From positions 1 through 64,000 of IMG/VR virus record IMGVR_UViG_2799112278_000002: a stretch of 64,000 nt of DNA; one strand, written 5' to 3'. Shown here one piece after another: positions 8,296 through 54,065 of this stretch. The notes under the pieces were generated by a model that did no database searches, was not told where the DNA came from, and was given only the letters and a program-made list of their open reading frames with translations. This DNA is from a virus. Lineage: Duplodnaviria > Caudoviricetes. The translations under genes were made by a program, and so were the position numbers. How positions within the stretch are numbered: position 1 is the stretch's first letter; the number at the start of each line of letters is the position of its first letter.

Positions 8296-11200
8296 TTACT
8301 TCTTTTCTTTTTTCAACACATTATCAGTTGCTTGCTTATAAATACTTTTTCCACCTTGCTTTTCTTGCAGCTGCTTTTGCGCTTTTTCAAAAATACTACC
8401 GGTACTGATTTTATTTTTAGTCTGAGTTTTCTTTTCAGGTAGAAATTCGCCTTTAAGTGCTTGATCAGCGATTATAACGGCTTCCCGGTTTAGTTGGTCA
8501 ATTTGCTCTCGCTTAGATTTAGAATCAATTGTTTGAGATACCAGTATGGTCTGTGATTGATCCCTGTTATCTTGCAGTGCCTTACTTGCCAACCGATACA
8601 TTTTTAAGTCCGGTGGAACAGGAACTTCATCGCGAAGCTCTTTTGTGCTTTTTCCTGTTGCTGCAGCTGTATCCATTAATTGCACTTTATGGGCCTGTTC
8701 AAGTTCCTCTAACTGCTTATAGAAGTCACCGATATTATCCGCATTGCGATAATTTTGAGTAAAGAAACGACGCACCACCGGCCATTCCTGCCAGTATCTC
8801 ATTGGGGCATTTTCGTATTTACCATAAGCGAGATCGATGGATTCAGTTATTGTAGTACCAACACCACCGGTATAACCACGAATGTAGTTATCTACAAACC
8901 GGGGAGATACGCCAAAAATTTCACCGACTTTTCTAGCGATCAATGTCGTACTGGGGCCATATTGACGTTCAGGCGGTAAAGTTTTTTCACCCTGAGGAAC
9001 AATGCTTTTATCCGAAAACAGACTGTAATTTGACATGTGTTCGTACACAGGTGTTATGGCCGTAGGTAAAAGAGTCGGCAACTGATTGGTAAGCAGCTTT
9101 CCCACTTGCTTGAAAGCGTCAGGATTATTTTGTACGGCCCATTCCATAAACCGAACCGGCATCGTTGCAAACATTGTTCCAGCCAAAAACGGTTTTGGCA
9201 CACTGAAAGTGAAAGTGTCATTGATTGGCACATTCCAGAACATATCTTTACGCCATTGCGGTAGTTTCTTGTATCGATCGTCATCTTTATACATCCACCA
9301 TAATAGCAGTGAAGGGATTGTAAGCAAGACTATATGCTTAACCCACGCTTGCATGGTTCGATCATACACAACATCCTTAACACTACCTTTACCCGCAGCT
9401 ACATCATTAATTTTTTCTTTTAACTCATTACCGCCAGTAAATAAGACTCTAAATACTTTATCCCAATCAAGAATAGTTACTTTACTAAATACCGCCACTC
9501 GATTCCATACAACGGATGCAGGGCCACCTTTTGAGAAATCTATCGTTAAATCTCTTGCATTAAAAGCTCTTTCCGGTAGACTGAATCCTTGTTCTTTCTC
9601 ACGAATATATTCACCGACACGCGGCGCAGACTCTACCATTTGCCCCACACGTTCCAATAACTCAATCATGTGCATCGGGCTAAACTTCCCTAAGGCAGTT
9701 TGTTTGCGTATCTTTTTTATTGCCTCTTGGGCGAAATTACGGTCAGTAGAATAAAAATCGGCCATGGCCGTCCCGGATGATACATATTCCCACCATAGCT
9801 TATCCTGCTTTGCAATAGCCATCATCCCTCTGAAAAAATCCCCTTTAGGCATATATCCGGATGGAGAGTTAACGTAGCTTGTAACCAAGTCACGCGAAAC
9901 GTTCACGGCTAGAAACGCTGGATTAAGAGAAACAAACCCCGCCCGGGCAACTCGTACTACCATACTTAAAAACTTCAAGAATAGGTTAGATGTATCGACT
10001 TCCTGCTCCATCATAGACTTGTATACTTCCGGCACGCCTATTTGATAAAACTTTGCCTTACCATTAACCAATACCTTAAATACACTATCTTTGTCTGATG
10101 CTCCGTTTCTTACAGGGCGTTTTGCAATGATAGATTCTATCTTGCCATTATCGCTATGGGTAATAATAAGCTCATTGCCTTTTTCATCTACCGGATTTCC
10201 ATCCTTGTCGGTATTCAACCACTTAGGCTCGTTTTTGCTATCATATTCAACAAAAGTTTCGCCCTTTTTGATAATGGTTTCAGCAACATCTTCAAGAGCA
10301 ACCTCTTTTTCTGCATATGCTATTTCTGGAACCTCTTCAATTAACCATCCCATATTGGCATGGTTGTCCGCAATATCAGCAAACAGCTGCTTAACTTTAT
10401 TACGTTCAGCTTGTTCAAGCATCTTGAAGACATTGTGTACTATTGACTCTGCCGGATTCACAATATCGCGTACACTGCCTACCATTTCTTTTAAACTATC
10501 GCCCAACTTTTCATATGCAGCTTCTTCGAAAACACGCATTAAGGGCACATAGTTCGGATATGCCTTTCTCAAGCCTTCCGCTTTTCCCTTTGACACAACG
10601 CCATAGTCAACCATGATATCCATTAGAGTATTACTAAAATCAACAATTTGCCTTCCTGCATTTACTATTTCCGGCCGTGCATCTTCAACTGTATTTAGCC
10701 AATCATCATAATCAAGCGGTGCTTCTTTTTTGTTTGCTACGGTAAGCATATGTTTAGAAACAACATACTCAAATAACTCTTGGTAAACCTCTTCATTTCG
10801 ATCTGCACCGATAGAGCTCATGATGTCAGACAACGGGACAAACTTACTGAAATCTACACCCGGATGGACTGCTTTGAGGCCATCACGTACAGCCTGGGCA
10901 TTAGTGCTTTTATTTTTGCCGATACCAAGCATGGCATTAGCCTTCCCTGCTAAGCCGCGGGTTAATAAGGCTTGAATATAAGGATTCTGTTCCATTGGGA
11001 GCTTTTTACCAATCAGCTTTTCCACCTGGTCAATTGCTTGTTTTATTGGAAAACGCCGCTCAACTAATTGCCGATAAACATAAGCCAACGCTTTACCAGC
11101 CTGTTCTTTACTTTTAGCAGACAGGGATCGCAGCGTAAGCTTTTCTTTTTGATCCCAAGAAATAACCCCACTTACTCTTTCCCTGGAAGTTTGGTTATAC

Positions 11201-33950: not shown

Positions 33951-35159
33951 TTATCCACCAAGCAGCATATCGCGATACTCGGACGGTATTTTATCCCAAT
34001 CAGTCTCTTGGAGCATTCGCTCTAAGTCGGCCACAGACGGACCGGCTTGCAAATTACCACCATTGACTTGATTCACTCTGGGGTGCTTCTCAATTTCATT
34101 TAATTTTTGTTCAAGACTCATTGCTTGTGGTTGCGCCGGGACCGTAACCGGTGCGGTTGTAGTGGTCGCTGGCGAAGGTGCTGCAGGTGCCGGGGCGGGT
34201 GCAGCAGTCGTTTGTTGAGTCGGTGCAGATTCGGTTGTAGCCGACTCAGTAGCCTTTGCCTTTTGTTCGGCTTCCCACATCAGTTTGGAATTGTTCCAAA
34301 GAGTTTGCACAGCCATAACATCTGACATCGTACCCGTACCACTGCTTGCCTTTTCAAAGGCTTGTGTAAAGGATTGCTGCAGCGCTGGCGGCATCTTGGC
34401 GACTTGATTAACCATGTAATTCCAAACATCGTTATATTCAGGCTTTGCAGTTTCCCTTGTGGCAAATTCCTGATAGGTATTTACAACTAATTGACGTTCA
34501 CTTTGCAAACGATTTGCCTCAGCCATAACATTGCTATGCAACTCGTTAACCAGGATCGATATTTCTGCATTGTCATCTTCATTGCCGTAAATATCAGGTT
34601 CTCTGCCGTTTTCTTCTTTAAATCGTTCTTTTGCAGCTTGGATCAATTGCTTACGATAGTTACTAGATTGTTGCTTTGAATCTTCTGTAACCGGTTGCTG
34701 CTGCCCGGGCGTTTGTTGCCCACTTAAAGGAGTCTGCACCGGCTGTTGTGATGGAAGAACTTGCGGCTGTTGAACTCTCGCAGCTTTTAATTCCTGAAGT
34801 TCGGCTTCCAATGCTGCTAACTTCTTATCGTTTTCCTGGCGCTTACGTCTTTCATCGTGAAGCGCAGCCAATGGGACCATTTTGTCTTTATCATCGCCAG
34901 TATCCGTACTCTGCGTGGTAACGGGAGCAGAGGCCCCGGTGGATTCCGGCGCTTTTACCTCAGGTTGAGTGGTCTGAACATTGGTTTCAGTTAACGTAGT
35001 GGCAGCAGGCGCAGCCACATTTGACTGTTTGTCTTCAGGTTGTTTGGTTTCCGTTTTTGTTGAAGATTTCAACTCTGCAGCTTCTTGCATAATTTCAAGT
35101 GCTATTTCCCTTGAGATACCTTCCAATTCTTCAGGTATTACTACATCATCATTAGGCAT
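33951..35159 (-). CDS. Scaffolding protein
   Basis: MVPLAALHDERRKRQE motif, acidic and Q/P-rich, directly upstream of the capsid gene. Confidence 0.75.
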   Translation of the reverse strand: MPNDDVVIPEELEGISREIALEIMQEAAELKSSTKTETKQPEDKQSNVAAPAATTLTETNVQTTQPEVKAPESTGASAPVTTQSTDTGDDKDKMVPLAALHDERRKRQENDKKLAALEAELQELKAARVQQPQVLPSQQPVQTPLSGQQTPGQQQPVTEDSKQQSSNYRKQLIQAAKERFKEENGREPDIYGNEDDNAEISILVNELHSNVMAEANRLQSERQLVVNTYQEFATRETAKPEYNDVWNYMVNQVAKMPPALQQSFTQAFEKASSGTGTMSDVMAVQTLWNNSKLMWEAEQKAKATESATTESAPTQQTTAAPAPAPAAPSPATTTTAPVTVPAQPQAMSLEQKLNEIEKHPRVNQVNGGNLQAGPSVADLERMLQETDWDKIPSEYRDMLLGG

Positions 35160-36110: not shown

Positions 36111-38339
36111 TTACATACCTATTTGGGCCGCGCTTAGCATTTCCCTGACGGCCGGCTGAGTCATGGTTTGTGGGTTGGGACGCTGCTGCACCTGTTGCGG
36201 CACCTGCGGTTGGCTTCCACCGGCAGCACTACTTACCTGCACGGCAGCATCATGGAACATCTGGATGACTTGCTCAGGGGGTATTCCTTGAATCATTTGC
36301 CCGACCTGAGCCTGTATTTCTGGCGGCATCTGTCCAAATAACATTTTAATCGCCCCATACAATTCTTGCGGCCCCATCTGGCTTATGGCCATTATCACTT
36401 GAGGCGGCAACTGCTGAAGAACAGGAACAAACGGATTCTGTTGCTGTATAGGTAATTCAATGCCGATCCTAGCAAGCATTTGAGCCTGCGCTTCCGGAGG
36501 AATGTCCTTTATGTTGATATTCCCAGTTAGCTTAATTGGAGTTTGTTGGCCAGCCTCTTGTTGAGCTTGCTGCCTTTCCATCCAGCGCTTCTTAATTTCT
36601 TCCCGATTCGGAATATCGGACATATCAATCAGCATGTCAAATACCATATCACCAGGTATACCAAGCTTAGATATAGCATCAACAAGCGCCCAGAATTGGC
36701 TTTGGCGCTGTGTAGCAGTGCTTGGCGTATCAGACACAACAATATCAAACTCGCCTACACTCAGGTCATTGAGCGTCTTATGTATGACACCCAATATAGG
36801 ATCTTCTACTTGGACCCTTTGATTGATCGTAATGAAATCCTGTTCGCCATTATCCCCCACGATTCTAAACGTTTTCTCATCCGTATAGTACTGTTGCACT
36901 AACCCCTTCTTGCCACGCTTGCCCCACATAATGAACAGTATCTGCTGTTTTGCACGGCGAAGATTATCAAAGAGCGCTCCAATATGAGTAACAGCCTGTC
37001 TCTGCCGGAGCTCGATCGCCTTGCCGCTTGCCGATTGCGAGATATCAGTACCAAGCATTCCTTCATTAATGCCCGATATATCCCGTATATCCTGCACAGC
37101 TTCCTGCTCAGCTTGAAACAGCCCCACCGGTGGATTCGGAGGATTAATACGCTGCAGCTTAGTCATCATCCCCGGCTTCGTTTCGATCATGACACCAGGC
37201 ATAGAGCCGAATTTGCGGACGTTCGATTTTTGTTTAGCATCGAAAACGCCCTCTTCATGAATCCAGCCACTATTAGCCTGAGTACCGAGTATATGTAGGG
37301 ATTGACTACGGCGCTTATTTACTTCTCGCTGTGGGTCCTTAATATCACGAACAACACCGGCCGGAATATCACCCTCACCAAGATAATAAGCAATAAAGGG
37401 AACATACGGAAACATGCCATGCTCATAAGGAGATTCCTTTTCTTCAAGAACATGCTCACCTATAAACACGGTGCAATAAGTCTTTGTAATCGGCAAGCTC
37501 ACCGGCCGTTTTACCTGACCGGAAACAAAATGATCAACCGTGATCTCTTCCTTTTTGAGCAAACTTTCTTTCCCATCGATCACGACTAAGTAGTATTGCT
37601 GAGATTCAGTACGCCGCCCCCAGCGTTCAACCAGCCTCAGTTTATGCGTGTTCTTTTGGTACCATAACGGTTCCAAGCCCACTAATGTAATATCTTCAGC
37701 CCGGTCATACTCATTCGTCGTAAAGTCAATGATATCGGCATGCTGCGGGTATACAGCTTTGAGCTCGTCTTTGTCTGCCCATTTACACCGGAAAAGAAAT
37801 TTAGCGTCGGAATAATCCGGCGCCACAGATTCAGGATCTGGATATATATCCATAGGGGAAACACGCTTTATCTTGATATCACCATCAAGCGAAGCATAAT
37901 CCCAGTCATAACATACCTCGAACCAGCCACGCCCGCAAATCGAACCATCAAGGAATACGGCCGACTCAACACTGGCATAATCGCACTGGTCCATAATGTA
38001 CTTGGTGACACCCTTGCGCACTGAACATAGATCAATGTCATTCTTAGTTCTCGGCAAAAACTCCGGTTCAAACCGGTTCAGCCTTTGATAACCAGAAAGC
38101 AAATTGATGAGCGGCTTTATCCGGTTAATCGTCAGCGTCGGCCTGCCTTGTTCATTAAGGATTTGCCGATCTCGATCATCCCACTGTTTGCCGCAGAAAA
38201 ACTCAATGTCTTCTCTGGCCTCAACTCGCCAGTCTCTATCCTTATCGACACTCGCTCTAAATTCGTCGCGGTATCGCATAAATTCCGGGCTATGGTCACT
38301 TTCTACTGTATCTTCCATAGGAACAGCAAACAAACTCAA
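36111..38339 (-). CDS. Portal protein (P22-like)
   Basis: FFCGKQW, PTLTINRIKP, DGSICGRGW, IKDPQREVNKRRS, DISGINE, SGKAIELRQ; Q-rich barrel tail. Confidence 0.9.
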   Translation of the reverse strand: MSLFAVPMEDTVESDHSPEFMRYRDEFRASVDKDRDWRVEAREDIEFFCGKQWDDRDRQILNEQGRPTLTINRIKPLINLLSGYQRLNRFEPEFLPRTKNDIDLCSVRKGVTKYIMDQCDYASVESAVFLDGSICGRGWFEVCYDWDYASLDGDIKIKRVSPMDIYPDPESVAPDYSDAKFLFRCKWADKDELKAVYPQHADIIDFTTNEYDRAEDITLVGLEPLWYQKNTHKLRLVERWGRRTESQQYYLVVIDGKESLLKKEEITVDHFVSGQVKRPVSLPITKTYCTVFIGEHVLEEKESPYEHGMFPYVPFIAYYLGEGDIPAGVVRDIKDPQREVNKRRSQSLHILGTQANSGWIHEEGVFDAKQKSNVRKFGSMPGVMIETKPGMMTKLQRINPPNPPVGLFQAEQEAVQDIRDISGINEGMLGTDISQSASGKAIELRQRQAVTHIGALFDNLRRAKQQILFIMWGKRGKKGLVQQYYTDEKTFRIVGDNGEQDFITINQRVQVEDPILGVIHKTLNDLSVGEFDIVVSDTPSTATQRQSQFWALVDAISKLGIPGDMVFDMLIDMSDIPNREEIKKRWMERQQAQQEAGQQTPIKLTGNINIKDIPPEAQAQMLARIGIELPIQQQNPFVPVLQQLPPQVIMAISQMGPQELYGAIKMLFGQMPPEIQAQVGQMIQGIPPEQVIQMFHDAAVQVSSAAGGSQPQVPQQVQQRPNPQTMTQPAVREMLSAAQIGM

Positions 38340-41517: not shown

Positions 41518-42915
41518 TTAAACCGCCATCCAGCTGCGCGATTCTGATTCACCGCGGTATTTATCGCGTTTCTCTTTTTCCTTCGGTTTATCCGGAGTCC
41601 ACGGCCGGGATGTACATGCATACATCGTTTCATCAAAGGCATGATCCTCACCATTGGTATCAACCTTTTCAGGATTATGCTTATCATGTGTCAGCATTGG
41701 AAATGTCCTGATTGTATGGAAGCAGGTTTCAAAGAAAGTAATCCCCGGTATCTGCTTACCCTCTTTATCGGTGTAACCGGTTAGACGGATTTTTACCTGC
41801 TCAGCGCCAGCTTCACGACCTTTAGTAGAGGGAATAAAAAGAGTCTTGCTCTTTTCAGACAAGACGTTGTTAATTTCCTCTGCGACTGTCGGACCCTCTG
41901 TGCCGGTTTTATTCCAACAAGCACTATCCAATACTGCATAGGACATAGGCAAATCTTCTTTTTCAGCTTGAGCAATCTTTAATGCAACCTGTTTAGCCGT
42001 TTCTTTGGTACCTACATTGGCCTTGCCTCCATACCCATATAGCTCACGGTATTTCCACAAGCGACTGTCATAATCAACCGCATACCATCCAACAGAATAA
42101 GGATGATAGCTGCCCCAGTCCATCGCTCGGAATCTTGTCCACTCTCGCGGAATGGCAAAAGGCTTACAAACATGCAGGGAACTTGACCACATATCGTAAA
42201 AGCGGCCGCCGGTGATTCCCCATTCGCCTTCACCATATACCTTGTAGCCTTCTGGATCTTGCAGCTTCCTAAGCTCCATACGCCGGTAATACGCTTCATC
42301 AATAAACCGGTTATCCTTATAAGTGCTGTGATGAGTGAATATATCAGGACTGGTTATATCAAAGTATTTGGCTTTAATCCAATGCGAAGCGCTGACTGGG
42401 TTAAAGCTAAACGTCATCTGGTAATATAGGTTCGGGTTAAGCAAAATGCCGCGCAGCCGATCATCTAAAATATCAACATCGGACTCATCGAGCTCCGTTG
42501 CTTCTTCTACCCATATGAAAACTAATTTGCCAAATTCAAAGCTTACTGACTTAATTTTTTCACGCTGGCTATCATCTTTCATACCACGAAAAATGATCTT
42601 ATTACCTGTCCGATTACAGACAATTTCCATTGGACTTTGCCGAACGGTCCACAATACAGATGCAAGTTTGCCACAAATCCTGTTGATTGCAGCTTTTAAC
42701 TCAGCATAGGTACTGTCCCGGTGTGATTCATCGATCTTCCTGACTACCAGTAAATTCGCACCAGCGTTCTTTGGGTCCATGAGCTTCAGTATATAATCCT
42801 GCGCTATATTTACCGACTTACCGCTACCGGCGCTGCCTTTAGCGCATCGATACCGGCACCGCGTTCTGTTAAATTCCCGAAATATAGGATTAAACTGAAC
42901 GACAGTTTCAGCCAT
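41518..42915 (-). CDS. terL: Terminase large subunit (PBSX-like)
   Basis: KGSAGSGKS, IWVEEATE, SFNP, AMDWG, EDHAFDE. Confidence 0.93.
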   Translation of the reverse strand: MAETVVQFNPIFREFNRTRCRYRCAKGSAGSGKSVNIAQDYILKLMDPKNAGANLLVVRKIDESHRDSTYAELKAAINRICGKLASVLWTVRQSPMEIVCNRTGNKIIFRGMKDDSQREKIKSVSFEFGKLVFIWVEEATELDESDVDILDDRLRGILLNPNLYYQMTFSFNPVSASHWIKAKYFDITSPDIFTHHSTYKDNRFIDEAYYRRMELRKLQDPEGYKVYGEGEWGITGGRFYDMWSSSLHVCKPFAIPREWTRFRAMDWGSYHPYSVGWYAVDYDSRLWKYRELYGYGGKANVGTKETAKQVALKIAQAEKEDLPMSYAVLDSACWNKTGTEGPTVAEEINNVLSEKSKTLFIPSTKGREAGAEQVKIRLTGYTDKEGKQIPGITFFETCFHTIRTFPMLTHDKHNPEKVDTNGEDHAFDETMYACTSRPWTPDKPKEKEKRDKYRGESESRSWMAV

Positions 42916-43429
42916 CGTCCCCACCATCGCCGTAATCAATTACGATTCTAAGCTCAGTATCAATAGGGCCACCGCCCTCACCAGTATGTTCGACCTTCTT
43001 CTGCTCCTTGTACATGCCTTTCATTTCAAAAAACAGCTTAATAGCCGAAACATCGCCCATCTTCGCCTTACGAATAAGCGCTTTCCAAACCTCTGCCGTC
43101 TCGGCATCCGTATACTGATTAATAAGGCTGTTGAGATAAGCAACAAAGTTCGGATCTTGCATCCAAACCCACAAAGTTTTATAGGTAATCCCGGCATCCT
43201 TCGCTTTTTGCTCTTTGGTCCCGCGATTTTCAGGATTAACAAGTAATCGAGCAATCGCTATTTGCTTCGCGTGAGGAACCCATTCATTACTTTTCATTAC
43301 GTCAACCGGAGTATCCGCAGCAACCTTATCTGCCGGTTTCTTTCGGGTATTTCTTGTGTTCCCCGGCTTCTTCCGCTTAGCCTTGCTTACCTTTTCTTGA
43401 CCTTCTACCTTTTGCTTTGTCATCATCAT
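42908..43429 (-). CDS. terS: Terminase small subunit-like HTH protein
   Basis: AKDAGITYKTLWVWMQDPNF..GDVSAIKLFFE..KVEHTGEGGGPI, directly upstream of terL. Confidence 0.7.
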   Translation of the reverse strand: MMMTKQKVEGQEKVSKAKRKKPGNTRNTRKKPADKVAADTPVDVMKSNEWVPHAKQIAIARLLVNPENRGTKEQKAKDAGITYKTLWVWMQDPNFVAYLNSLINQYTDAETAEVWKALIRKAKMGDVSAIKLFFEMKGMYKEQKKVEHTGEGGGPIDTELRIVIDYGDGGDDG

Positions 43430-44633: not shown

Positions 44634-44707
44634 TGGTGGAGCGACTAGGAGTCGAACCTAGGACTGTCGGGTTACGGCCGAGCGTGATACCATTTCACCA
44701 TCACTCC
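44634..44707 (-). tRNA. Atypical tRNA with GTA (Tyr) anticodon
   Basis: GGAGTGA/TCGCTCC acceptor, GTGA/TCAC D stem, CTAGG-TTCGACT-CCTAG T arm, A73, CCA. Loop is CCGTAAC, with a 4-nt variable loop. Confidence 0.75.
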
Positions 44708-44710
44708 ATT

Positions 44711-44787
44711 TGGCAGGGATAACTGGACTCGAACCAGTGCATAAGCGGTTAACAGCCGCTTGCCTTACCTTGCTTGGCTATATCCCT
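44711..44787 (-). tRNA. tRNA-Asn(GTT)
   Basis: AGGGATA/TATCCCT acceptor, AGCGG-CTGTTAA-CCGCT anticodon arm, ACTGG-TTCGAGT-CCAGT T arm, G73, CCA. Confidence 0.9.
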
Positions 44788-44795
44788 ACATTCTT

Positions 44796-44962
44796 AACCC
44801 CCAAGGGGTTCGCCGGAATGAGCGGTACCGGCATGTACACTCTCTCATTGTCCGGCGCTTTATTTGCAGCATATGCCGCGACTTTCTTATCCGCTGCTTC
44901 TACATCTTCCCCCCAGACCTAAACCTGAGGCTTCAAAGCAATGCAGATATACACGGCATATG
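44796..44962 (-). ncRNA. Candidate structured RNA (three hairpins) upstream of the tRNAs
   Basis: Hand-paired stems 44870-44962, 44811-44857 and 44796-44810, with several G-U pairs on the minus strand. Confidence 0.5.
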
Positions 44963-47463: not shown

Positions 47464-48033
47464 CTATAACTTGTATAAAAACAACTCTTCCCCTATCGGT
47501 AACGGACAATCATCTTTCCATTGCAGTTTCCGCACAACATCCCATGCCGAAAAATCAATATTCGAAAAGTCATATCGTTCATATAACCGGCCATCAATCG
47601 CAAGCCGCAGCTGCCTATCAGAGAATATTTGCAAGAACTTAGATAGCTGCTTTAATTCGTTTATTTCCTTATCCCCGGCTTCGTTGTGAACCGTGAAATG
47701 CAAACCATTTAATAGCGCCTTAAACCCTCCAGTTGAGCGCCTTAGCAGTTCAACATACACCTCGCGCAACGTATGATTATACAATGCAGAGTACATATAA
47801 ATCAGCCCAGAATAATTCATCCCGCGCAGAGTTTGGCAAAATTCAATTACCTTTTCAGGTATAAGCATTGGCTCCCCGCCTGATATAATCACTTCATCGT
47901 ACTGCAGCAGCTGATCAATGCTTGATAGCGCCGCTATATTATTTAGAGTCAAATTATCATTGCAGCATCCCTCACAGGAACGCGGACAGTCCAATGTTAC
48001 TAATACCCTTGCTTTCATAGAAACAATCCTCAC
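47464..48033 (-). CDS. Short radical SAM protein
   Basis: CPRSCEGCCN (CxxxCxxC) and IISGGEP. Confidence 0.8.
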   Translation of the reverse strand: MRIVSMKARVLVTLDCPRSCEGCCNDNLTLNNIAALSSIDQLLQYDEVIISGGEPMLIPEKVIEFCQTLRGMNYSGLIYMYSALYNHTLREVYVELLRRSTGGFKALLNGLHFTVHNEAGDKEINELKQLSKFLQIFSDRQLRLAIDGRLYERYDFSNIDFSAWDVVRKLQWKDDCPLPIGEELFLYKL

Positions 48034-48431
48034 TTCGTATCCGGATACCGTTTATAAAGATAATCCAAACAAAACTGCCGTAGCTCTTGGCTATCAGGCC
48101 CATTATGCCGCCGGTAGTGGCACGGGTTCACCGGCGCATCCTGGCATAGCATTACCATGTCTTCTTTCCGGTCCTTACCACCCCGGCCCTTTGGCTTCTC
48201 ATGGTGTGGTATCGTACCTTGCGGAATCGGCCGGCCACAATAAATGCAGCGCTTTTTATCCCTCTTCCAAATGAATTCATAGAGTTCTATTAACTCATCA
48301 CCATATAAGCGCCCCGGTTTCTTCTTTTTACTTTTGGCTTTAATCCTTCCCCGGGACTTTAACGAAGCTCGACTGCTCAGCCTGGTTTTAGCTTGCAGCG
48401 AGCTTCGCCTTTTCAATGGAGTTTGCTTCAT
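48030..48431 (-). CDS. HNH-family endonuclease
   Basis: CIYCG..HHEKPKGRGG..VMLC..PCH. Confidence 0.75.
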   Translation of the reverse strand: MKQTPLKRRSSLQAKTRLSSRASLKSRGRIKAKSKKKKPGRLYGDELIELYEFIWKRDKKRCIYCGRPIPQGTIPHHEKPKGRGGKDRKEDMVMLCQDAPVNPCHYRRHNGPDSQELRQFCLDYLYKRYPDTK

Positions 48432-48522
48432 TTACTCCACTTGCCGCAGCGGTTACACTGCGAGAACCGGTAAGGCGGGTATTTATTCCCTAATATCAGG
48501 CAGATTATTTTACGTACCAAGA

Positions 48523-48840
48523 TCATACTAACTTCAAGTTGCCAAGCTGGCTTTCAATAATTGAACATACTTCTTCGAGTCGGATATTGCTTGCCTCAAC
48601 GTCGTTTATTAACTCTCGCAAATTTTCTTCAAGCGTATTACATTGCGTAGTATCGCAATTCGCCGCCTGACACTTTATAGGTTCAGGCCTGGCGACAGAA
48701 TCCATCAAATCACGTGATAATTGCCGATTTCTAATAACACGATCTCTGAGTTGATTAAGAAACGATTCCACCGTAGCCACCTTCGTGCTTATTGGGCCTG
48801 AATTACCTATGCCGCAAGCACCTAGTATTTCATTTCTCAC
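48523..48840 (-). CDS. Hypothetical coiled-coil protein
   Basis: GTG start with a GGGGGAG RBS. Confidence 0.55.
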   Translation of the reverse strand: MRNEILGACGIGNSGPISTKVATVESFLNQLRDRVIRNRQLSRDLMDSVARPEPIKCQAANCDTTQCNTLEENLRELINDVEASNIRLEEVCSIIESQLGNLKLV

Positions 48841-48895
48841 TTTATCTCCCCCTTATTTTTGCGTTGAACCTATTATAAAACAAGTCCATTTCCTA

Positions 48896-48912
48896 TTTCG
48901 GAAATTCCGAAA
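48896..48912. promoter_or_regulatory. Palindromic operator candidate upstream of a TATAAT
   Basis: TTTCGGAA-A-TTCCGAAA; minus-strand TATAAT at 48872-48877. Confidence 0.45.
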
Positions 48913-48989
48913 CAATATTTTTAAAAAATGATAATATAAAAAAAGCCGCCCAACCTTGTGTTAGGCGACTGCTGCATATTCTCATATTT

Positions 48990-49181
48990 TTAATAGTTAT
49001 CAATAAAATCCATTGCCTCCTGTAACGAACCAGCATCCCATTCAGATGATCTTAGGTTAGCGGGATAATCCAATTCCTCCGGGGTATAGCAGCGGAAAAT
49101 TATGTGTTCAACACCGTCGCCGCTGCGCTCAATATCCTGTTTGATTGCCCAGCCTTTATATTTCCGTGTTATCTTACGCAC
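48990..49181 (-). CDS. Small hypothetical protein (cassette array, gene 4)
   Basis: AAGGAGG RBS and GTG start. Confidence 0.6.
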   Translation of the reverse strand: MRKITRKYKGWAIKQDIERSGDGVEHIIFRCYTPEELDYPANLRSSEWDAGSLQEAMDFIDNY

Positions 49182-49217
49182 TTATTATTCCTCCTTGTGG
49201 CGGGGCTGTTAGCCCTG

Positions 49218-49298
49218 TCACTCTGCGTTATATTTACGCCACTCTTCGCGGCATTGCAGGAAAACGCGTAACGACATCCATTTATATCCCTTTTTCAT
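49218..49298 (-). CDS. 26-aa peptide ending YNAE-stop (cassette array, gene 3)
   Basis: AAGGAGG RBS; MKKGYKWMSLRVFLQCREEWRKYNAE. Confidence 0.5.
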   Translation of the reverse strand: MKKGYKWMSLRVFLQCREEWRKYNAE

Positions 49299-49350
49299 AT
49301 TCATCCTCCTTAGTTGACCCCGCTTGCCGCATTACCGGCCCCGGAGGCCG

Positions 49351-49653
49351 TCACTCTGCGTTATAGGTGTAGCCTAATACTGATTTTGAGTAAATGGCCT
49401 TATCGGTTTTGGCTAAAGTGCGACTGCCTGCAAAAACTGCATATTCATAATTTCCTTCTGACCATTTGTAAACCAATGACTGGTTATAATCTATTGTCCT
49501 ACTGCGATAACGCTCCATTCCTGACTTACGAATAAGACCTAACAGCCAGTTTAATTGTTTGTCCGAAAGTTTCATTCTTGCAGTACCGTAACAATCCGGC
49601 TTGCGTTGGCCGGTAAACATATTAGCCAATTCGGTGTGTGTCATCGCTATCAT
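49351..49653 (-). CDS. Hypothetical protein ending YNAE-stop (cassette array, gene 2)
   Basis: 100 aa; GAAAGGA RBS. Confidence 0.6.
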   Translation of the reverse strand: MIAMTHTELANMFTGQRKPDCYGTARMKLSDKQLNWLLGLIRKSGMERYRSRTIDYNQSLVYKWSEGNYEYAVFAGSRTLAKTDKAIYSKSVLGYTYNAE

Positions 49654-49715
49654 TCCTTTCGTCTGGCTGTGGTTGTGACCGTCTGCCTGCCAGCATTAGG
49701 CCGGGATAACCCGGC

Positions 49716-49868
49716 TCACTCTGCTTTAATCTTGTTCAGCCTTTCGGCTGCTCGTTCCGCGTCATCGCGGGTGTGGTGCCTGCTTTCCGTGTTGTAATTT
49801 ACGTCAACGACTACCCATCTATATCCGCAATGATACAAGCTTGGGTTAGCAACTGCTCTGTATACCAT
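49716..49868 (-). CDS. 50-aa protein ending IKAE-stop (cassette array, gene 1)
   Basis: GGAGG RBS; MVYRAVANPSLYHCGYRW..AERLNKIKAE. Confidence 0.6.
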   Translation of the reverse strand: MVYRAVANPSLYHCGYRWVVVDVNYNTESRHHTRDDAERAAERLNKIKAE

Positions 49869-49996
49869 CGTTACCGCCTCCGTTTATTTATCTTGATTTA
49901 ATTATAAACTAAGATATTTATAAATGTCAATAATTCTTATAAATATTTTTATTGATTTATAAATTAAGATATTGTAGTATGATAGTTGGAGGGGAT

Positions 49997-50251
49997 ATGA
50001 TGCCAAGATCGCCAAGAGTGCCAAAAGAAGAAGCCTTGCAAATTGAATTTGAATTTAAAAAGCATATAAATGCTGCCGGAAGCAATGTTACCGACACTGT
50101 ACGCCGCTTAAATGAAGAATACGGCACCACAGAAACTCCGCAGGCCGTAACTCAACAGCTAAAGAATGGTACAATGCCAGTATGGAAGCAAAATCGCATT
50201 GCTAAGGTACTGGGTTTTAAGATCAAATGGGAACGGGAGGAAGAAAGATGA
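49997..50251 (+). CDS. Small HTH-like DNA-binding protein
   Basis: VTDTVRRLNEEYG..TPQAVTQQLKNGT..IAKVLGFKIKW; GGAGGGG RBS. Confidence 0.65.
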   Translation: MMPRSPRVPKEEALQIEFEFKKHINAAGSNVTDTVRRLNEEYGTTETPQAVTQQLKNGTMPVWKQNRIAKVLGFKIKWEREEER

Positions 50252-50751: not shown

Positions 50752-50810
50752 AGGTCACATTATAGATGTGGCCTTTTTATTCTATGTTTGCTCGAGGGGG
50801 TAATCGCAAT

Positions 50811-52049
50811 ATGAGCCGTACCATTCTCCATATCGATCTAAATAACTTTTACGCCTCCGTCGAATGCCTGTATAACCCAGAAATCCGTGATAAGCCAGTA
50901 ATCGTATGCGGCGATGCAGAAGCCAGGCACGGCATTGTCCTTGCCAAAAACGGACCGGCAAAAGCCATGGGAGTTAAAACCGGCGATGTAATTTGGCAGG
51001 CCAAACTCAAATGCCCAGGCTTAATTGCGGTACCGGCAGACTTCCGCAAGTACCTGCGTTTTTCTCGCCTGGCCAAGTCAATATACGCTGACTATACAGA
51101 CCGCATCGAAGCATTTGGCATTGATGAGTGTTGGCTGGATATAACAGGTACGGAGCAGATTTTCGGGGATGGTGAAGCTGTGGCAAATAAAATACGACAC
51201 CGCTTCAAAGAAGAATTGGGCCTCACGGCTTCAGTCGGTGTCTCCTGGAGCAAGATTTTTTCTAAGCTCGGCAGCGATATGAAAAAACCGGATGCAACTA
51301 CTGTCATTACTCCGGAGAACTTTCGTGAAAAAGTATGGCCTCTGCCGGTGGGCGATTTATTATATGTCGGCCGATCCACACGAAAGAAGCTCCAGAACCG
51401 TGCGATATTAACCATTGGCGATTTAGCGAATCGAGACATACATAGCCTACGCCTGCTGCTGGGCGTATGGGGCGAAACACTTTGGCATTTTGCGAACGGA
51501 CTTGATACGGCGCCAGTGAAATTTCTTGGCGAAAAAAGCATTGTTAAATCTGTTGGCAACAGCACCACTGCTGTGCGAGATCTACAGAATAATGAAGATG
51601 TCAAAATGCTTGTTTTCGTCTTAGCTGAAAGCGTTGCGGCTCGCCTCCGGGAGCATGGACTAAAATGTACAACTGTATCGATCAGCGTCCGAGACAAAGA
51701 ACTCAATACGTTTGACCGTCAGGGTAAGTTATCTATGCCGACGTTTCTTTCTGGGGACATTGCCCAAAAAGCGCTCGATTTGTTTGCTGCAAACTACCGA
51801 TGGGATAAATCGATCCGGAGCATTGGTGTTCGGGGAGCCGACCTGGTAACGGCTGACGGCCATATTCAGTTAGACCTATTTAGCAAGGATCAAAGACAAA
51901 TGGAAAGGTTGGAAGCCACGATCGATACAATCCGCAGACGCTTTGGACAATACAGTCTGCAGCGCTGTACAATGCTGTTCGACAAGCGCCTAACTGGCTT
52001 TAATCCCCGTGAGGAACATGTTATTCATCCTGTTTCATACTTTAAATAA
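50811..52049 (+). CDS. Y-family translesion DNA polymerase (DinB/UmuC-like)
   Basis: ILHIDLNNFYASVE, IDECWLD, SKLGSDMKKPD, SIRSIGVR. Confidence 0.93.
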   Translation: MSRTILHIDLNNFYASVECLYNPEIRDKPVIVCGDAEARHGIVLAKNGPAKAMGVKTGDVIWQAKLKCPGLIAVPADFRKYLRFSRLAKSIYADYTDRIEAFGIDECWLDITGTEQIFGDGEAVANKIRHRFKEELGLTASVGVSWSKIFSKLGSDMKKPDATTVITPENFREKVWPLPVGDLLYVGRSTRKKLQNRAILTIGDLANRDIHSLRLLLGVWGETLWHFANGLDTAPVKFLGEKSIVKSVGNSTTAVRDLQNNEDVKMLVFVLAESVAARLREHGLKCTTVSISVRDKELNTFDRQGKLSMPTFLSGDIAQKALDLFAANYRWDKSIRSIGVRGADLVTADGHIQLDLFSKDQRQMERLEATIDTIRRRFGQYSLQRCTMLFDKRLTGFNPREEHVIHPVSYFK

Positions 52050-52050
52050 A

Positions 52051-52074
52051 AAATAGCTGCCTTAGCAGCTATTT
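52051..52074. terminator. Bidirectional terminator
   Basis: AAATAGCTGC-CTTA-GCAGCTATTT between convergent genes. Confidence 0.75.
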
Positions 52075-52077
52075 CTT

Positions 52078-52263
52078 TTATACCCATTTCCTACTTATGC
52101 CAAGCTTTCGCACCAAAGTTCGAATACGCCTATCTGAATAGCCCAATATTTCAGCTGCTATTTCAACACTTCCGTACTTATTTAATGCATCAACAAGTAT
52201 CCCTCGTATCGGCTGGCCGTACTCTTTTTCAAGAGCTCTTGCTTTGCTCAAATTCTTCACCAC
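52078..52263 (-). CDS. Small Fis-type HTH protein
   Basis: ALNKYGSVEIAAEILGYSDRRIRTLVRKLGI. Confidence 0.65.
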   Translation of the reverse strand: MVKNLSKARALEKEYGQPIRGILVDALNKYGSVEIAAEILGYSDRRIRTLVRKLGISRKWV

Positions 52264-52582
52264 CTAATACGTCCTTTGCCAATTTAGCGAAATAAGTCCA
52301 ATGGTTGCAATCGCACGGTCCAGGGCAACCACAACTTTCGGTTTCTGCAATTTTAACCAATACATTGCGCAATCGAAAGCATTCATCAACGAGTGCTATA
52401 TTATCCTGACCAATTTGATTGAATGTATCTACTCCTGTTTTTAATTGATGTTGAATTAGTAGCGTTAGAACTTCAGCACGTATATCACCCTCTACCCGTA
52501 CAAAGCCCCTAGGACTATCTAGCCCCACCTTTTTAACAAGTAAGTTGCGTTGCCCGATTGCGTTTAACTCACGCTGTTTCAT
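52229..52582 (-). CDS. Hypothetical protein
   Basis: ORF with a Cys cluster CGCPGPCDC. Confidence 0.5.
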   Translation of the reverse strand: MKQRELNAIGQRNLLVKKVGLDSPRGFVRVEGDIRAEVLTLLIQHQLKTGVDTFNQIGQDNIALVDECFRLRNVLVKIAETESCGCPGPCDCNHWTYFAKLAKDVLGGEEFEQSKSS

Positions 52583-52592
52583 AAAATCCCCC

Positions 52593-52856
52593 TCAGCCAC
52601 CTGGTGCCGACTTTTTCATATCAATATTACCCTTGCATATCGGGCATGCCGGATACCAGTCTGCCATGCTTGTTTGTAATCCACAGTCTGTATTCCAACT
52701 AACGTCCACCCAGTACCCTTTATGTCCATTGGCGCATAACCACATACCGTCCGTTGTCCTTCTTCGATCTAACGGGTCCTTCCCTTGTAAAACATCATAC
52801 ATAGCCTCGTCAATTAGCTTTTGCAATCCACGTGCTAATTCCTCTTTGCCCTTCAT
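52593..52856 (-). CDS. Hypothetical zinc-binding protein
   Basis: CANGH..CPIC. Confidence 0.5.
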   Translation of the reverse strand: MKGKEELARGLQKLIDEAMYDVLQGKDPLDRRRTTDGMWLCANGHKGYWVDVSWNTDCGLQTSMADWYPACPICKGNIDMKKSAPGG

Positions 52857-52857
52857 G

Positions 52858-53520
52858 CTATATTGTCCGATTAATGCTGCCGGCACTATTAAACCCTTCA
52901 GGATATCGCTGCTTCAACTTAGCGATATTGGTATCACATATGTCCTGCATATTAAGATTGTAGCGCTTACAAAACAGTTTCATCCAAGATAGAACGTTGC
53001 CAATGAGTTTTCCTAACTTTGCCTGATCCAATTCATGGCCGTGATACACAACCTTTTTTAGATATTCCGTAACATCACCAGAGGCTTTACTCAACCTTCC
53101 GATACACACATACAATAAAGCCGGTGCAGCTTCTTCAGCCGCCTCTACAACTACCTGATAACTAATCCCTGCCGTCGTACAGAGTGTTGCGCAATACCAA
53201 TTCACATCACCGGCCTCCTTGATCATTGCCTCATGGTTTCCACCAGCAATTTCAAAGTTGACAACTGCATCAATAAACTCTGCCGTTTCTCCCGCTATTC
53301 CCATCCCAAAGTTCCCCAACCTTTGCATGGCACCTTGCCCATTATTAGCAGTTCGTTCAGCAAGTCGCTGATATTCTTCGAAATAGGGAAAGCCCTCATG
53401 CCAATTCCCATTTTGGAAAACAAAAGTCTTTTCGCACATACAAGATGTCTTTTGCCCTTCTACCGGTATTGAAAGTTCTAACCAGGTTATCCCGCAATTC
53501 GGGCATTGCTTTTTAGCCAT
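52858..53520 (-). CDS. MazG-like nucleotide pyrophosphohydrolase (tandem domains, N-terminal Zn knuckle)
   Basis: GIAGETAEF..KEAGDVNWY, then a degenerate copy ending NIAKLKQRYPEGF. Confidence 0.75.
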   Translation of the reverse strand: MAKKQCPNCGITWLELSIPVEGQKTSCMCEKTFVFQNGNWHEGFPYFEEYQRLAERTANNGQGAMQRLGNFGMGIAGETAEFIDAVVNFEIAGGNHEAMIKEAGDVNWYCATLCTTAGISYQVVVEAAEEAAPALLYVCIGRLSKASGDVTEYLKKVVYHGHELDQAKLGKLIGNVLSWMKLFCKRYNLNMQDICDTNIAKLKQRYPEGFNSAGSINRTI

Positions 53521-53524
53521 ATTA

Positions 53525-53758
53525 CTAACCCCTTTCTTCTTTTAATTCATCCAGTAGCTTTGCACACTCCGAATAACTCATATTGTCAACGTTATAGTTT
53601 TCCAGGTCATAACCCAATTGCTGAATTAAGTCTTTCGCAAATTCAATCATGGCCGGAGTCGGCTTGTCCTTTATAAGATGATTACTTTTTACCAGCTTAC
53701 AGTTTTTAAGATGCGGGGCCGTCATTAGCGATCCGCAGTAAGGGCAACGTTCAGCCAT
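53525..53758 (-). CDS. Hypothetical protein
   Basis: CPYCG..PTPAMIEFAKDL. Confidence 0.5.
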   Translation of the reverse strand: MAERCPYCGSLMTAPHLKNCKLVKSNHLIKDKPTPAMIEFAKDLIQQLGYDLENYNVDNMSYSECAKLLDELKEERG

Positions 53759-53759
53759 A

Positions 53760-54065
53760 TTAACCACGCTCCATTTTAGAATCCGCAATATAATACCCCT
53801 GCTTATTTTTGGGCAACAATTTAAACCGATAATACATTTCAAACTGGTAATGATCTTCGTATTGCTCAGCTATAATTATTTTACTAGGCTCATTGGCAAT
53901 TGCGTCCCACATAGACATGGATATCAATTGTTCCCCATATTTTTCAATTAACTTAACCATTAATGCTTGGAGAATTCTATGCTTTTCTTTGTATATTTCC
54001 GCTTCCTCTTGCGGACCAATGCCAATAGGTATCTGATTAAGTAAGTTAAGATTGATTTGATCCAC
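53760..54065 (-). CDS. Hypothetical protein
   Basis: 101-aa ORF with RBS. Confidence 0.5.
   Translation of the reverse strand: MDQINLNLLNQIPIGIGPQEEAEIYKEKHRILQALMVKLIEKYGEQLISMSMWDAIANEPSKIIIAEQYEDHYQFEMYYRFKLLPKNKQGYYIADSKMERG

Follow-up and report, generated by a model that had tools for sequence, protein, structure and literature searches.

Eroded copies of the type-P5 twister ribozyme lie between the accessory genes of a prophage operon and coincide with the borders of variable gene cassettes

A short DNA element recurs at the junctions of unrelated small genes in the prophage operon studied here. Judged by its sequence and the structure deduced from it, this element belongs to a family that is already catalogued, the type-P5 twister self-cleaving ribozymes (Rfam RF02684), and is no new signal. 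We consider it very probable that copies of this ribozyme lie between the accessory genes of the operon and that they also mark the cassettes that have been gained, lost or exchanged there.

Results

Genomic setting of the operon and its small genes

The operon is located in a 64,000-nucleotide stretch of viral DNA (the window), which corresponds to C1:132092-196091 in the coordinates of the genome. A prophage gene set is present in the window, comprising the genes for the large terminase (41518-42939), the portal protein (36111-38339), a helicase, a sigma factor, a methyltransferase and MazG; HNH and radical-SAM-like genes adjoin the operon on its downstream side. At the DNA level, the closest relatives are from two Negativicutes, Pelosinus fermentans and Propionispora sp. 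Four small ORFs, all on the minus strand, make up the operon, which possesses a consensus promoter and a terminator of its own. The features of the locus, together with two intact reference ribozymes, are given below in the order of transcription of the operon; R1 denotes a covariance model that we built from 14 intact relatives.

49988..50251, plus strand: divergent gene for an 87-aa protein, with homologs that adjoin twister-bearing operons in other loci
49901..49930, minus strand: operon promoter, TTGACA-18 nt-TATAAT (pattern scan, 12/12 consensus positions)
49716..49868, minus strand: gene 1, 50 aa, ending in IKAE-stop (ORF list, reverse-complement reading)
49663..49725, minus strand: twister-P5 copy 1, near-complete (Rfam 29.6 bits, R1 37.3 bits, alignment to L028/L024/L026, fold)
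49351..49653, minus strand: gene 2, 100 aa, ending in YNAE-stop (ORF list, reverse-complement reading)
49315..49360, minus strand: twister-P5 copy 2, 3'-truncated relic (Rfam 29.9 bits, R1 48.1 bits, alignment to the intact C11 copy and L010)
49218..49304, minus strand: short ORF, a putative gene, 28 aa (26 aa from the second ATG), ending in YNAE-stop (ORF list)
49194..49227, minus strand: twister-P5 copy 3, relic with internal deletions (aligned with the intact L018 twister of the orthologous junction)
48990..49181, minus strand: gene 4, 63 aa (ORF list; homologs in other loci)
48935..48970, minus strand: intrinsic terminator at the operon end, 11-pair stem followed by a T run (terminator scan)
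C11:134430..134377: intact twister on contig C11 (reference relative)
L028, 9810-9870: intact twister in the phage contig L028 (reference relative)

An inverted repeat with 35-nt arms (49889-49971) encloses the promoter and looks like an operator. The protein encoded by the divergent gene gave no Pfam match; our guess is that it may be a repressor-type (HTH) regulator. Its homologs were found beside twister-bearing operons in six other loci (L001, L010, L012, L014/L027, L023 and L024). When the region 48700-50100 was scanned for terminators, the one at the operon end, flagged at 48970..48944, was the sole terminator-like site on the minus strand, and one further match was recorded on the plus strand at 48896-48912.

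The four encoded proteins have no similarity to each other, as the original prediction had stated (the third ORF being counted there as 26 aa), and no Pfam match was obtained for any of them. The 50-aa protein accounts for the single PHROG match among the four, a marginal one to a group of unknown function (phrog_11443, E 0.0085). For the 100-aa protein, a search of 5.8 billion protein clusters uncovered only two other homologs, pattern scans of the genome contigs and viral contigs revealed no close relatives of its gene, and the AlphaFold model was poor (mean pLDDT 57.8). A lead from the ESM Atlas connecting this protein to DUF5680 (score 0.90) was dropped, since Pfam gave no confirmation, even at E<=10. 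The ESM Atlas provided no lead for the 63-aa protein; homologs of its gene in L018, L028 and L022 likewise follow a twister or the remnant of one. No homolog of the 28-aa ORF was present in any of the relative loci that we compared, and a blastn search of the locus against the INPHARED phages returned no match.

The repeated element conforms to the type-P5 twister family

The original prediction drew attention to three consecutive genes that end in ..AE-TGA inside a common sequence and are directly followed by hairpins, and our ORF list and exact-match searches bear this out. The exact 9-mer GCAGAGTGA occurs at three sites in the 64-kb window (49724..49716, 49359..49351 and 49226..49218), all of them on the minus strand and each holding the stop codon (TGA) of the upstream gene; the calculated chance expectation for an exact 9-mer on both strands of 64 kb is about 0.5 matches. 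A GC hairpin, whose sequence differs among the copies, is positioned directly 3' of each site, and copies 1 and 2 run on past this hairpin as UAAUGC(U)GGCA..GGUCA. At two of the three sites, which are 133 nt apart, the repetition extends to a 16-nt exact direct repeat, TATAACGCAGAGTGAC. The whole genome contains 21 exact GCAGAGTGA 9-mers, and only the three sites in the window are followed by such a hairpin. Two variants of the 9-mer, AAGAGTGA, are present in a second prophage on contig C11.

Searching Rfam with cmscan yielded RF02684 at both of the fuller copies, and nothing else plausible, with E values of about 5e-4 on 1 kb; the matches cover 49360..49321 at 29.9 bits (copy 2) and 49725..49667 at 29.6 bits (copy 1). 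These scores are under the RF02684 gathering score of 37.6, and copy 3 gave no Rfam match. We attribute these low scores to the deletion in P4 of copy 1, the truncation of L4 in copy 2 and the loss of the cleavage site from copy 3. In the same genome, the twister found on C11 at the 3' side of a ~95%-identical 100-aa gene attains 43.6 bits, a value over the gathering score. The Rfam consensus, which reads cGCAGAGgG, P1 hairpin, UAAUGCgGCAaga and then cCGGUCcCAAGCCCGg, agrees letter for letter with the motif in the window. Scores of 48.1 bits for copy 2 and 37.3 bits for copy 1 were obtained with R1, a model by which copy 3 remained undetected at E<=10. A weak R1 match at 34082..34042 (12.9 bits, E 0.08) lies inside a 402-aa ORF and was taken as chance.

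Twister-P5 (clan CL00120) was described by Roth et al. (2014; cited in PMC6765202) and has since been reviewed (PMC5408937). We mapped the window motif on the published architecture, which is composed of P1, L1, P2, L2, P4, L4 and the pseudoknots T1 and T2, with cleavage occurring at N^A adjoining P1 (PMC5408937). In this scheme, (C/A)GCA represents the 3' strand of P2, and GCAGAGUGA this strand plus loop L1. GAGUG(A) constitutes L1 on its 3' side. The initial G acts as the general base, and T1 results from base pairing between the GUG and the CAC of L4. The variable hairpin corresponds to P1, closed by a loop, and is followed by the cleavage site U^AA, in which A is the general acid (role as given in PMC11662667), and by UGC(G/U), the 5' strand of P2. 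Next come GC or GG, which form T2 with GC or CC in L4 as the partner, and ..CGG-UCACAA(G/C)C..CCG, which provides P4 and L4. A U-A pair occupies the middle of T1 in this bacterial class, versus G-C in the majority of the Rfam members. The UGA stop arises from this U-A pair, and the genes end in ..AE because the UGA of L1 serves as the stop codon of the upstream gene. Copies 1 and 2 both possess the general-base G and the N-A cleavage dinucleotide 3' of P1 (U-A at 49698/49697 and 49334/49333, respectively). Intact twisters occupy the same junctions in the second prophage of the genome and in a metagenomic relative.

Covariation among 25 aligned copies is consistent with this assignment. All five pairs of P1 covary (5/5), with 96.5% of the cells being paired, and P2 is paired to 91%. 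When the whole structure including the pseudoknots is considered, 87% is paired versus 74% in shuffled alignments, and none of 500 shuffles (0/500) reaches the observed value. The hairpins had been described beforehand as having a different sequence but the same shape; this description was correct, and the covariation of P1 explains it. Building a covariance model and searching Rfam, as had been suggested, placed the element in a catalogued family with a covarying hairpin. The window elements share with RF02684 the element order and the conserved nucleotides (cGCAGAGgG, closed P1, UAAUGCgGCA and cCGGUCcCAAGCCCGg), the loop-closed P1 that type P5 demands, and a setting between small phage-like genes of an anaerobic Firmicute; partners for T1 and T2 can be read in copy 1. 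They differ from it in that all three copies stay below the gathering score and in that the middle T1 pair is U-A instead of the G-C of the Rfam majority.

All three window copies carry lesions

The P4 stem is incomplete in every window copy, being 4 nt short in copy 1 and having lost its 3' strand in copy 2 and its 5' strand in copy 3. The damage to all three copies had not been part of the original prediction.

Copy 1, within which the last three codons and the stop of gene 1 are located, is the best preserved. P2 (AGCA/UGCU) and P1 (GCCGGG-UUAU-CCCGGC) are in place, and both T1 (GUG/CAC) and T2 (GG/CC) are available; the T2 register GG/CC is a reading that is supported by L005 and L017. The predicted cut would fall between U49698 and A49697. 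In comparison with L028, L024 and L026, 4 nt (CGAU) of the 3' strand of P4 are gone from copy 1, which is otherwise unchanged; in its nested fold, the inner part of P4 is lost, while P2, P1 and the outer GGC/GCC helix still form. The subfamily to which copy 1 belongs has the signature UAAUGCUGGCAGGCAGACGGU(C/U)ACAACCACCGAnAGCCAG. A pattern search for relatives of copy 1 recovered eight genome and phage-contig copies in which the full ACAACCACCGAnAGCCAG end is kept, as well as L022, L023 and L025, which diverge at this end or are relics, and L021, which is a CRISPR spacer. At the C11 junction upstream of the 100-aa gene, the same 4-nt deletion as in copy 1 is accompanied by a 10-nt loss of AAUGCUGGCA, and the cleavage site is gone. 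Since copy 1 has its deletion in common with a C11 relic that then lost the cleavage site, the copy 1 lineage was perhaps already inactive. In an assay of about 1,900 natural twisters (CHiTA), mismatches and deletions in P1, P2 and P4 were well tolerated, while cleavage was abolished upon loss of the general-acid A and strongly reduced by two or more mutations at conserved residues, and joint defects in both pseudoknots were not tolerated (PMC11662667). Copy 1 may still cut, because its catalytic residues and, on our reading, the partners of both pseudoknots are kept and P4 defects are tolerated in the CHiTA data; its sequence leads us to lean, by a small degree, toward a copy that still cleaves.

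In copy 2, P2 (CGCA/UGCG), L1, P1 and the UAAUGCGGCAAG segment are intact, and up to GGGGUCA it departs from the intact C11 copy at just two single bases and by an additional G in P1. It stops after GGGGUCA inside L4; the 12 nt that follow in the intact form (CAAGCCCACCGC) are absent, and the sequence leads straight into the RBS of the 28-aa ORF. In the Rfam alignment, the last 17 model positions are deleted. Due to the break inside L4, copy 2 has neither a T2 partner nor the 3' strand of P4, and it contains one T1 mismatch as well. From these lesions, copy 2 is almost certainly inactive.

Copy 3 retains CGCAGAGUGA, P1 (CAGGGCUAACAGCCCCG) and CACAAG as a remnant of L4. T2, the 5' strands of both P2 and P4, and the UAAUGC cleavage site are missing; neither pseudoknot can form, and P2 is left as its 3' strand only. 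Compared to the L018 twister that precedes the homolog of the 63-aa gene, copy 3 has lost the 16 nt that hold these four missing parts, along with a further 10 nt. The U-A site that copies 1 and 2 possess is therefore missing, and copy 3, to judge from what is left of it, is almost certainly inactive.

The 28-aa ORF lies in a 133-nt segment that is bounded by the 16-nt direct repeat, consists of the 3' part of copy 2, the ORF itself and the 5' part of copy 3, and is absent from L018. We considered a split or trans-acting ribozyme assembled from the halves of copies 2 and 3 and dropped this idea, since the alignment of copy 3 with a single ancestral twister, that of L018, extends from end to end.

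Gene content between the ribozyme copies varies among related phages

Near the operon, a single block is shared between the window and C11. This block of 408 nt (49315-49722; 95.6% DNA identity) is the 100-aa gene, and its ends fall within AGAGUGA of copy 1 and GGGGUCA of copy 2. The phage contig L028 shares both flanks with the window (48287-49198 at 75% and 52072-53774 at 85%), and has in common with it the 63-aa gene and an island of 84 nt that covers copy 1. The L028 operon otherwise contains five other genes in between and one intact twister, the remaining junctions being relics; one of its genes ends in ..NLNAE, with a UAA inside a decayed GCAGAGUAA-CGGC element. In the metagenomic contig L018, the 100-aa gene is followed by one intact twister, and this in turn by the 63-aa gene. 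L019 carries the sole homolog of the 100-aa gene that has no downstream twister, and this homolog ends 10 residues earlier, without the GYTYNAE tail. A comparison of 14 related operons showed that they have hardly any gene families in common. Related phages hence possess different genes between conserved elements while the flanks are kept, an outcome in line with the variable cargo that had been proposed at the outset. The breakpoints are found at varying positions within the element, namely in L1, in L4 and on the 3' side of P1.

A search of the genome for tyrosine recombinases (PF00589) detected none inside the window, the nearest one being situated at C1:216176, ~20 kb past the window end. 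The simplest reading of these sequence comparisons is that cassettes would be swapped through ordinary recombination at short conserved ribozyme sequence and not by a dedicated site-specific system. It could be that the placement of breakpoints at ribozymes partly reflects the fact that the ribozyme is the sole conserved sequence in the gaps, rather than a preferred crossover site.

Wider occurrence of the element and of AE stops

Twister-P5 is present at E <= 0.001 in 11 of 151 sampled genomes of the same class (G000 included), and in eight of them above the cut-off; in one genome of this sample, a single strand carries three copies. In IMG/VR, a pattern scan located this twister-P5 variant on at least 117 contigs. 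Among the matches listed, the UGA of L1 terminates an upstream ORF of at least 35 aa, ending in xAE, in 26 of 132 distinct instances (20%). Most other instances among the listed matches stop 2-10 nt upstream, with a UAA directly before the first C being the commonest arrangement, and arrays of up to at least six copies occur among them. In the class-level sample, the UGA serves as the stop in 5 of 16. Half-elements that are devoid of the cleavage site number about 2, versus 134 full copies, among the phage matches listed for the wider sample. Because relic halves are this rare, the erosion in the lineage studied here is unusual for the class.

Discussion

If an intact copy is transcribed in such an operon, it would be expected to cleave the polycistronic mRNA immediately 3' of P1. 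This would leave a stable hairpin with a 2',3'-cyclic phosphate at the end of the upstream cistron, and a 5'-OH at the start of the downstream one. In parallel, the conserved ribozyme blocks may act as sites at which cassettes are gained, lost and exchanged by recombination at short shared sequence.

One alternative deserves serious attention even though we regard it as the less probable one: all three copies could be dead, with selection keeping the stop codon and a REP-type hairpin that blocks 3'-exonucleases, and no cleavage taking place in the operon. It is in keeping with such fossils that only GCAGAGUGA and P1 are kept in all three copies and in the relics of L011, L028 and C11, that folding gives a P1 of 5-6 GC-rich pairs in each copy, and that the 4-nt deletion of copy 1 is common to a further-decayed relic on C11. 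However, the catalytic and pseudoknot nucleotides of copy 1 are all unchanged relative to its intact relatives, flaws in P4 are well tolerated in natural twisters (PMC11662667), and a hairpin can shield a 3' end only if something makes that end. The hairpins might also be viewed as transcription terminators, attenuators or antitermination signals, given that they are GC-rich and come directly after stop codons, but none of the three is followed by a U tract, the terminator scan flagged none of them, and the conserved flanks are those of a ribozyme core and not of a terminator; we consider this reading very unlikely. The original prediction had offered RNA processing or antitermination as one possibility; its processing half agrees in kind with a type-P5 twister core, while its antitermination half belongs to the reading just judged very unlikely.

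The other possibility put forward there, a cassette junction resembling that of integrons, holds as a description, since flanks are kept, genes differ and breakpoints fall in the elements. An integron-like system in the strict sense, that is, dedicated DNA recombination sites with a site-specific recombinase acting on hairpin DNA, might be suspected from the highly variable gene content between conserved elements, from the 133-nt segment flanked by a 16-nt direct repeat, and from hairpins that keep their shape and not their sequence. This is nevertheless highly improbable: the window encodes no tyrosine recombinase, the RNA family fully explains the conserved sequence, the pseudoknot partners covary on one strand only, the breakpoints lie at differing element positions with no fixed crossover, and neither the R''/L''/L'/R' layout of attC nor an R' box (GTTRRRY) beside the hairpins is present. 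Almost no credence can be given to the notion that the UGA and the hairpin constitute a recoding signal, such as SECIS-like selenocysteine insertion or read-through. In each of the three copies, a stable hairpin does follow the UGA immediately, and the TGA that closes the read-through frame of copy 1 overlaps with the next ATG. The read-through frames, however, pass through the ribozyme for 21-22 codons, show no conservation from one copy to another and lead to no in-frame downstream ORF, and relatives have UGG or UGC at this position or stop further upstream.

Twister-P5 copies between accessory genes, the reading that we prefer, have their closest parallel in the hammerhead ribozyme arrays of prophages, which flank single genes or short gene blocks whose identities change, and in which all tested tandem arrays cleaved in vitro (Perreault et al., 2011; PMC3088659). 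In both cases, several ribozymes are located in one phage operon between small genes of inconstant identity, and the role proposed for them is the conversion of a polycistronic RNA into single-gene mRNAs. The ribozyme class is a different one, however, and the tested hammerhead arrays cleaved, whereas most of the copies in the window are eroded. Twisters share the gene contexts of hammerheads, and processing of polycistronic mRNA has been proposed for them; this proposal, like the role of bacterial and phage twisters in general, is still unproven (PMC6765202). Integron attC sites resemble the window elements as imperfect hairpin-forming repeats at the 3' end of promoterless cassettes with variable cargo, but the window elements come without an integrase, attI, R and L boxes or a fixed crossover, and their conservation is at the RNA level. 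The hyperplastic regions of T4-type phages are said to have cassette boundaries formed by PeSL (promoter-early stem-loop) elements, reportedly described by Arbiol et al. in 2010. The likeness here is by analogy only, with a short conserved regulatory stem-loop sequence between small accessory genes offering shared homology for shuffling; PeSLs differ in being promoter and terminator DNA motifs of another phage group, while the window elements are ribozymes.

We tentatively extend this comparison to the idea, doubtful as it is, that phage twisters serve as junction modules of hypervariable gene arrays, in which 40-60 nt of near-invariant sequence, common to phages that are not otherwise related, would provide portable homology for the insertion, deletion and swapping of single-gene cassettes. 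Over 30/35 nt, copy 1 is matched by a CRISPR spacer from a Pelosinus fermentans MAG. If the idea of junction modules were true, the conserved ribozyme would be a good CRISPR target, and targeting could select for deletions of the kind seen here. Likewise, the stop inside L1, which is found in 20% of the phage copies listed, would make a terminating ribosome and the folding of the ribozyme mutually exclusive, and cleavage would be coupled to translation.

Prophage layouts punctuated by ribozymes were already published between 2011 and 2014; less ordinary in the present case are the decay series and the cassette boundaries inside ribozyme sequence. In routine annotation, such eroded copies, which score below the Rfam thresholds, will be overlooked or mistaken for new repeats. 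At orthologous junctions, the series proceeds from intact via P4-deleted, L4-truncated and internally deleted to almost erased copies, and it offers a ready set of variants for asking what cleavage does to the expression of the neighbouring genes. With cassettes that are common to different prophages ending in ribozyme sequence, a gene-shuffling role of these RNAs becomes testable.

Control region and neighbouring genes of the operon

We found the consensus promoter of the small-gene operon overlapped by a large inverted repeat and several 10-nt AT palindromes, which together look like an operator set. The following features were annotated in and around this part of the prophage.

Window 49889-49971: inverted repeat with 35-nt arms, 77% complementary, between the operon and the divergent 87-aa gene
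Window 50766-52049 (+): Y-family (DinB/ImpB-type) DNA polymerase gene, within the prophage
Window 47464-48033 (-): gene for a 189-aa protein with a 4Fe-4S/radical-SAM-like N-terminus (PF13353)
Window 44634-44787 (-): adjacent, prophage-borne tRNA-Tyr(GTA) and tRNA-Asn(GTT) genes

The majority of the phage genes lie on the other strand from the polymerase gene, which is situated downstream of the divergent 87-aa gene; this block is missing from the related phage L028. Just downstream of the operon, the gene for the 189-aa protein, a match to phage family phrog_31524 (function unknown; E 6e-45), adjoins an HNH endonuclease gene. Just upstream of the tRNA pair is a weak match to the DUF3800-VIII RNA motif (window 44885-44952; 28.7 bits, below the gathering score of 40.2).

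Twister-P5 elements in other phages

G000 C11:132877-135930: second prophage region (L001) in the genome carrying the window
L028:10050-10100 and 10590-10630: two scar-like junctions in the related phage operon

The second prophage, in one genome with the window's and largely unrelated to it, is laid out in the same way. It comprises a consensus-like promoter, a divergently oriented homolog of the 87-aa gene, small genes and two twisters, one intact and the other a dead relic. Much larger arrays than that of the window are present on four IMG/VR phage contigs, which carry six (L130), five (L051), four (L132) and three (L081) intact copies, those of each contig on a single strand and within a few kb. 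Both L028 junctions resemble ribozyme scars. One consists of the 3' tail CCUGAUAGCCAGA and lacks the 5' part; in the other, AUAACGCA is fused directly to AUUAAAGG, as if the entire ribozyme had been lost by deletion between two CGCA repeats.

A CRISPR spacer matching ribozyme DNA

L021:1360-4900: CRISPR array of a Pelosinus fermentans MAG (DAMATJ010000009.1), at least 37 repeats

With a period of 65-66, the repeat unit of this array is ATTTCAATACATCTAATGTGTTTGTTACTC. At 30 of 35 nt, the first of the spacers agrees with positions 49698..49669 of the window, within the twister of copy 1, the near-complete element, and this match indicates that a host has acquired immunity directed at conserved ribozyme DNA from a related phage.
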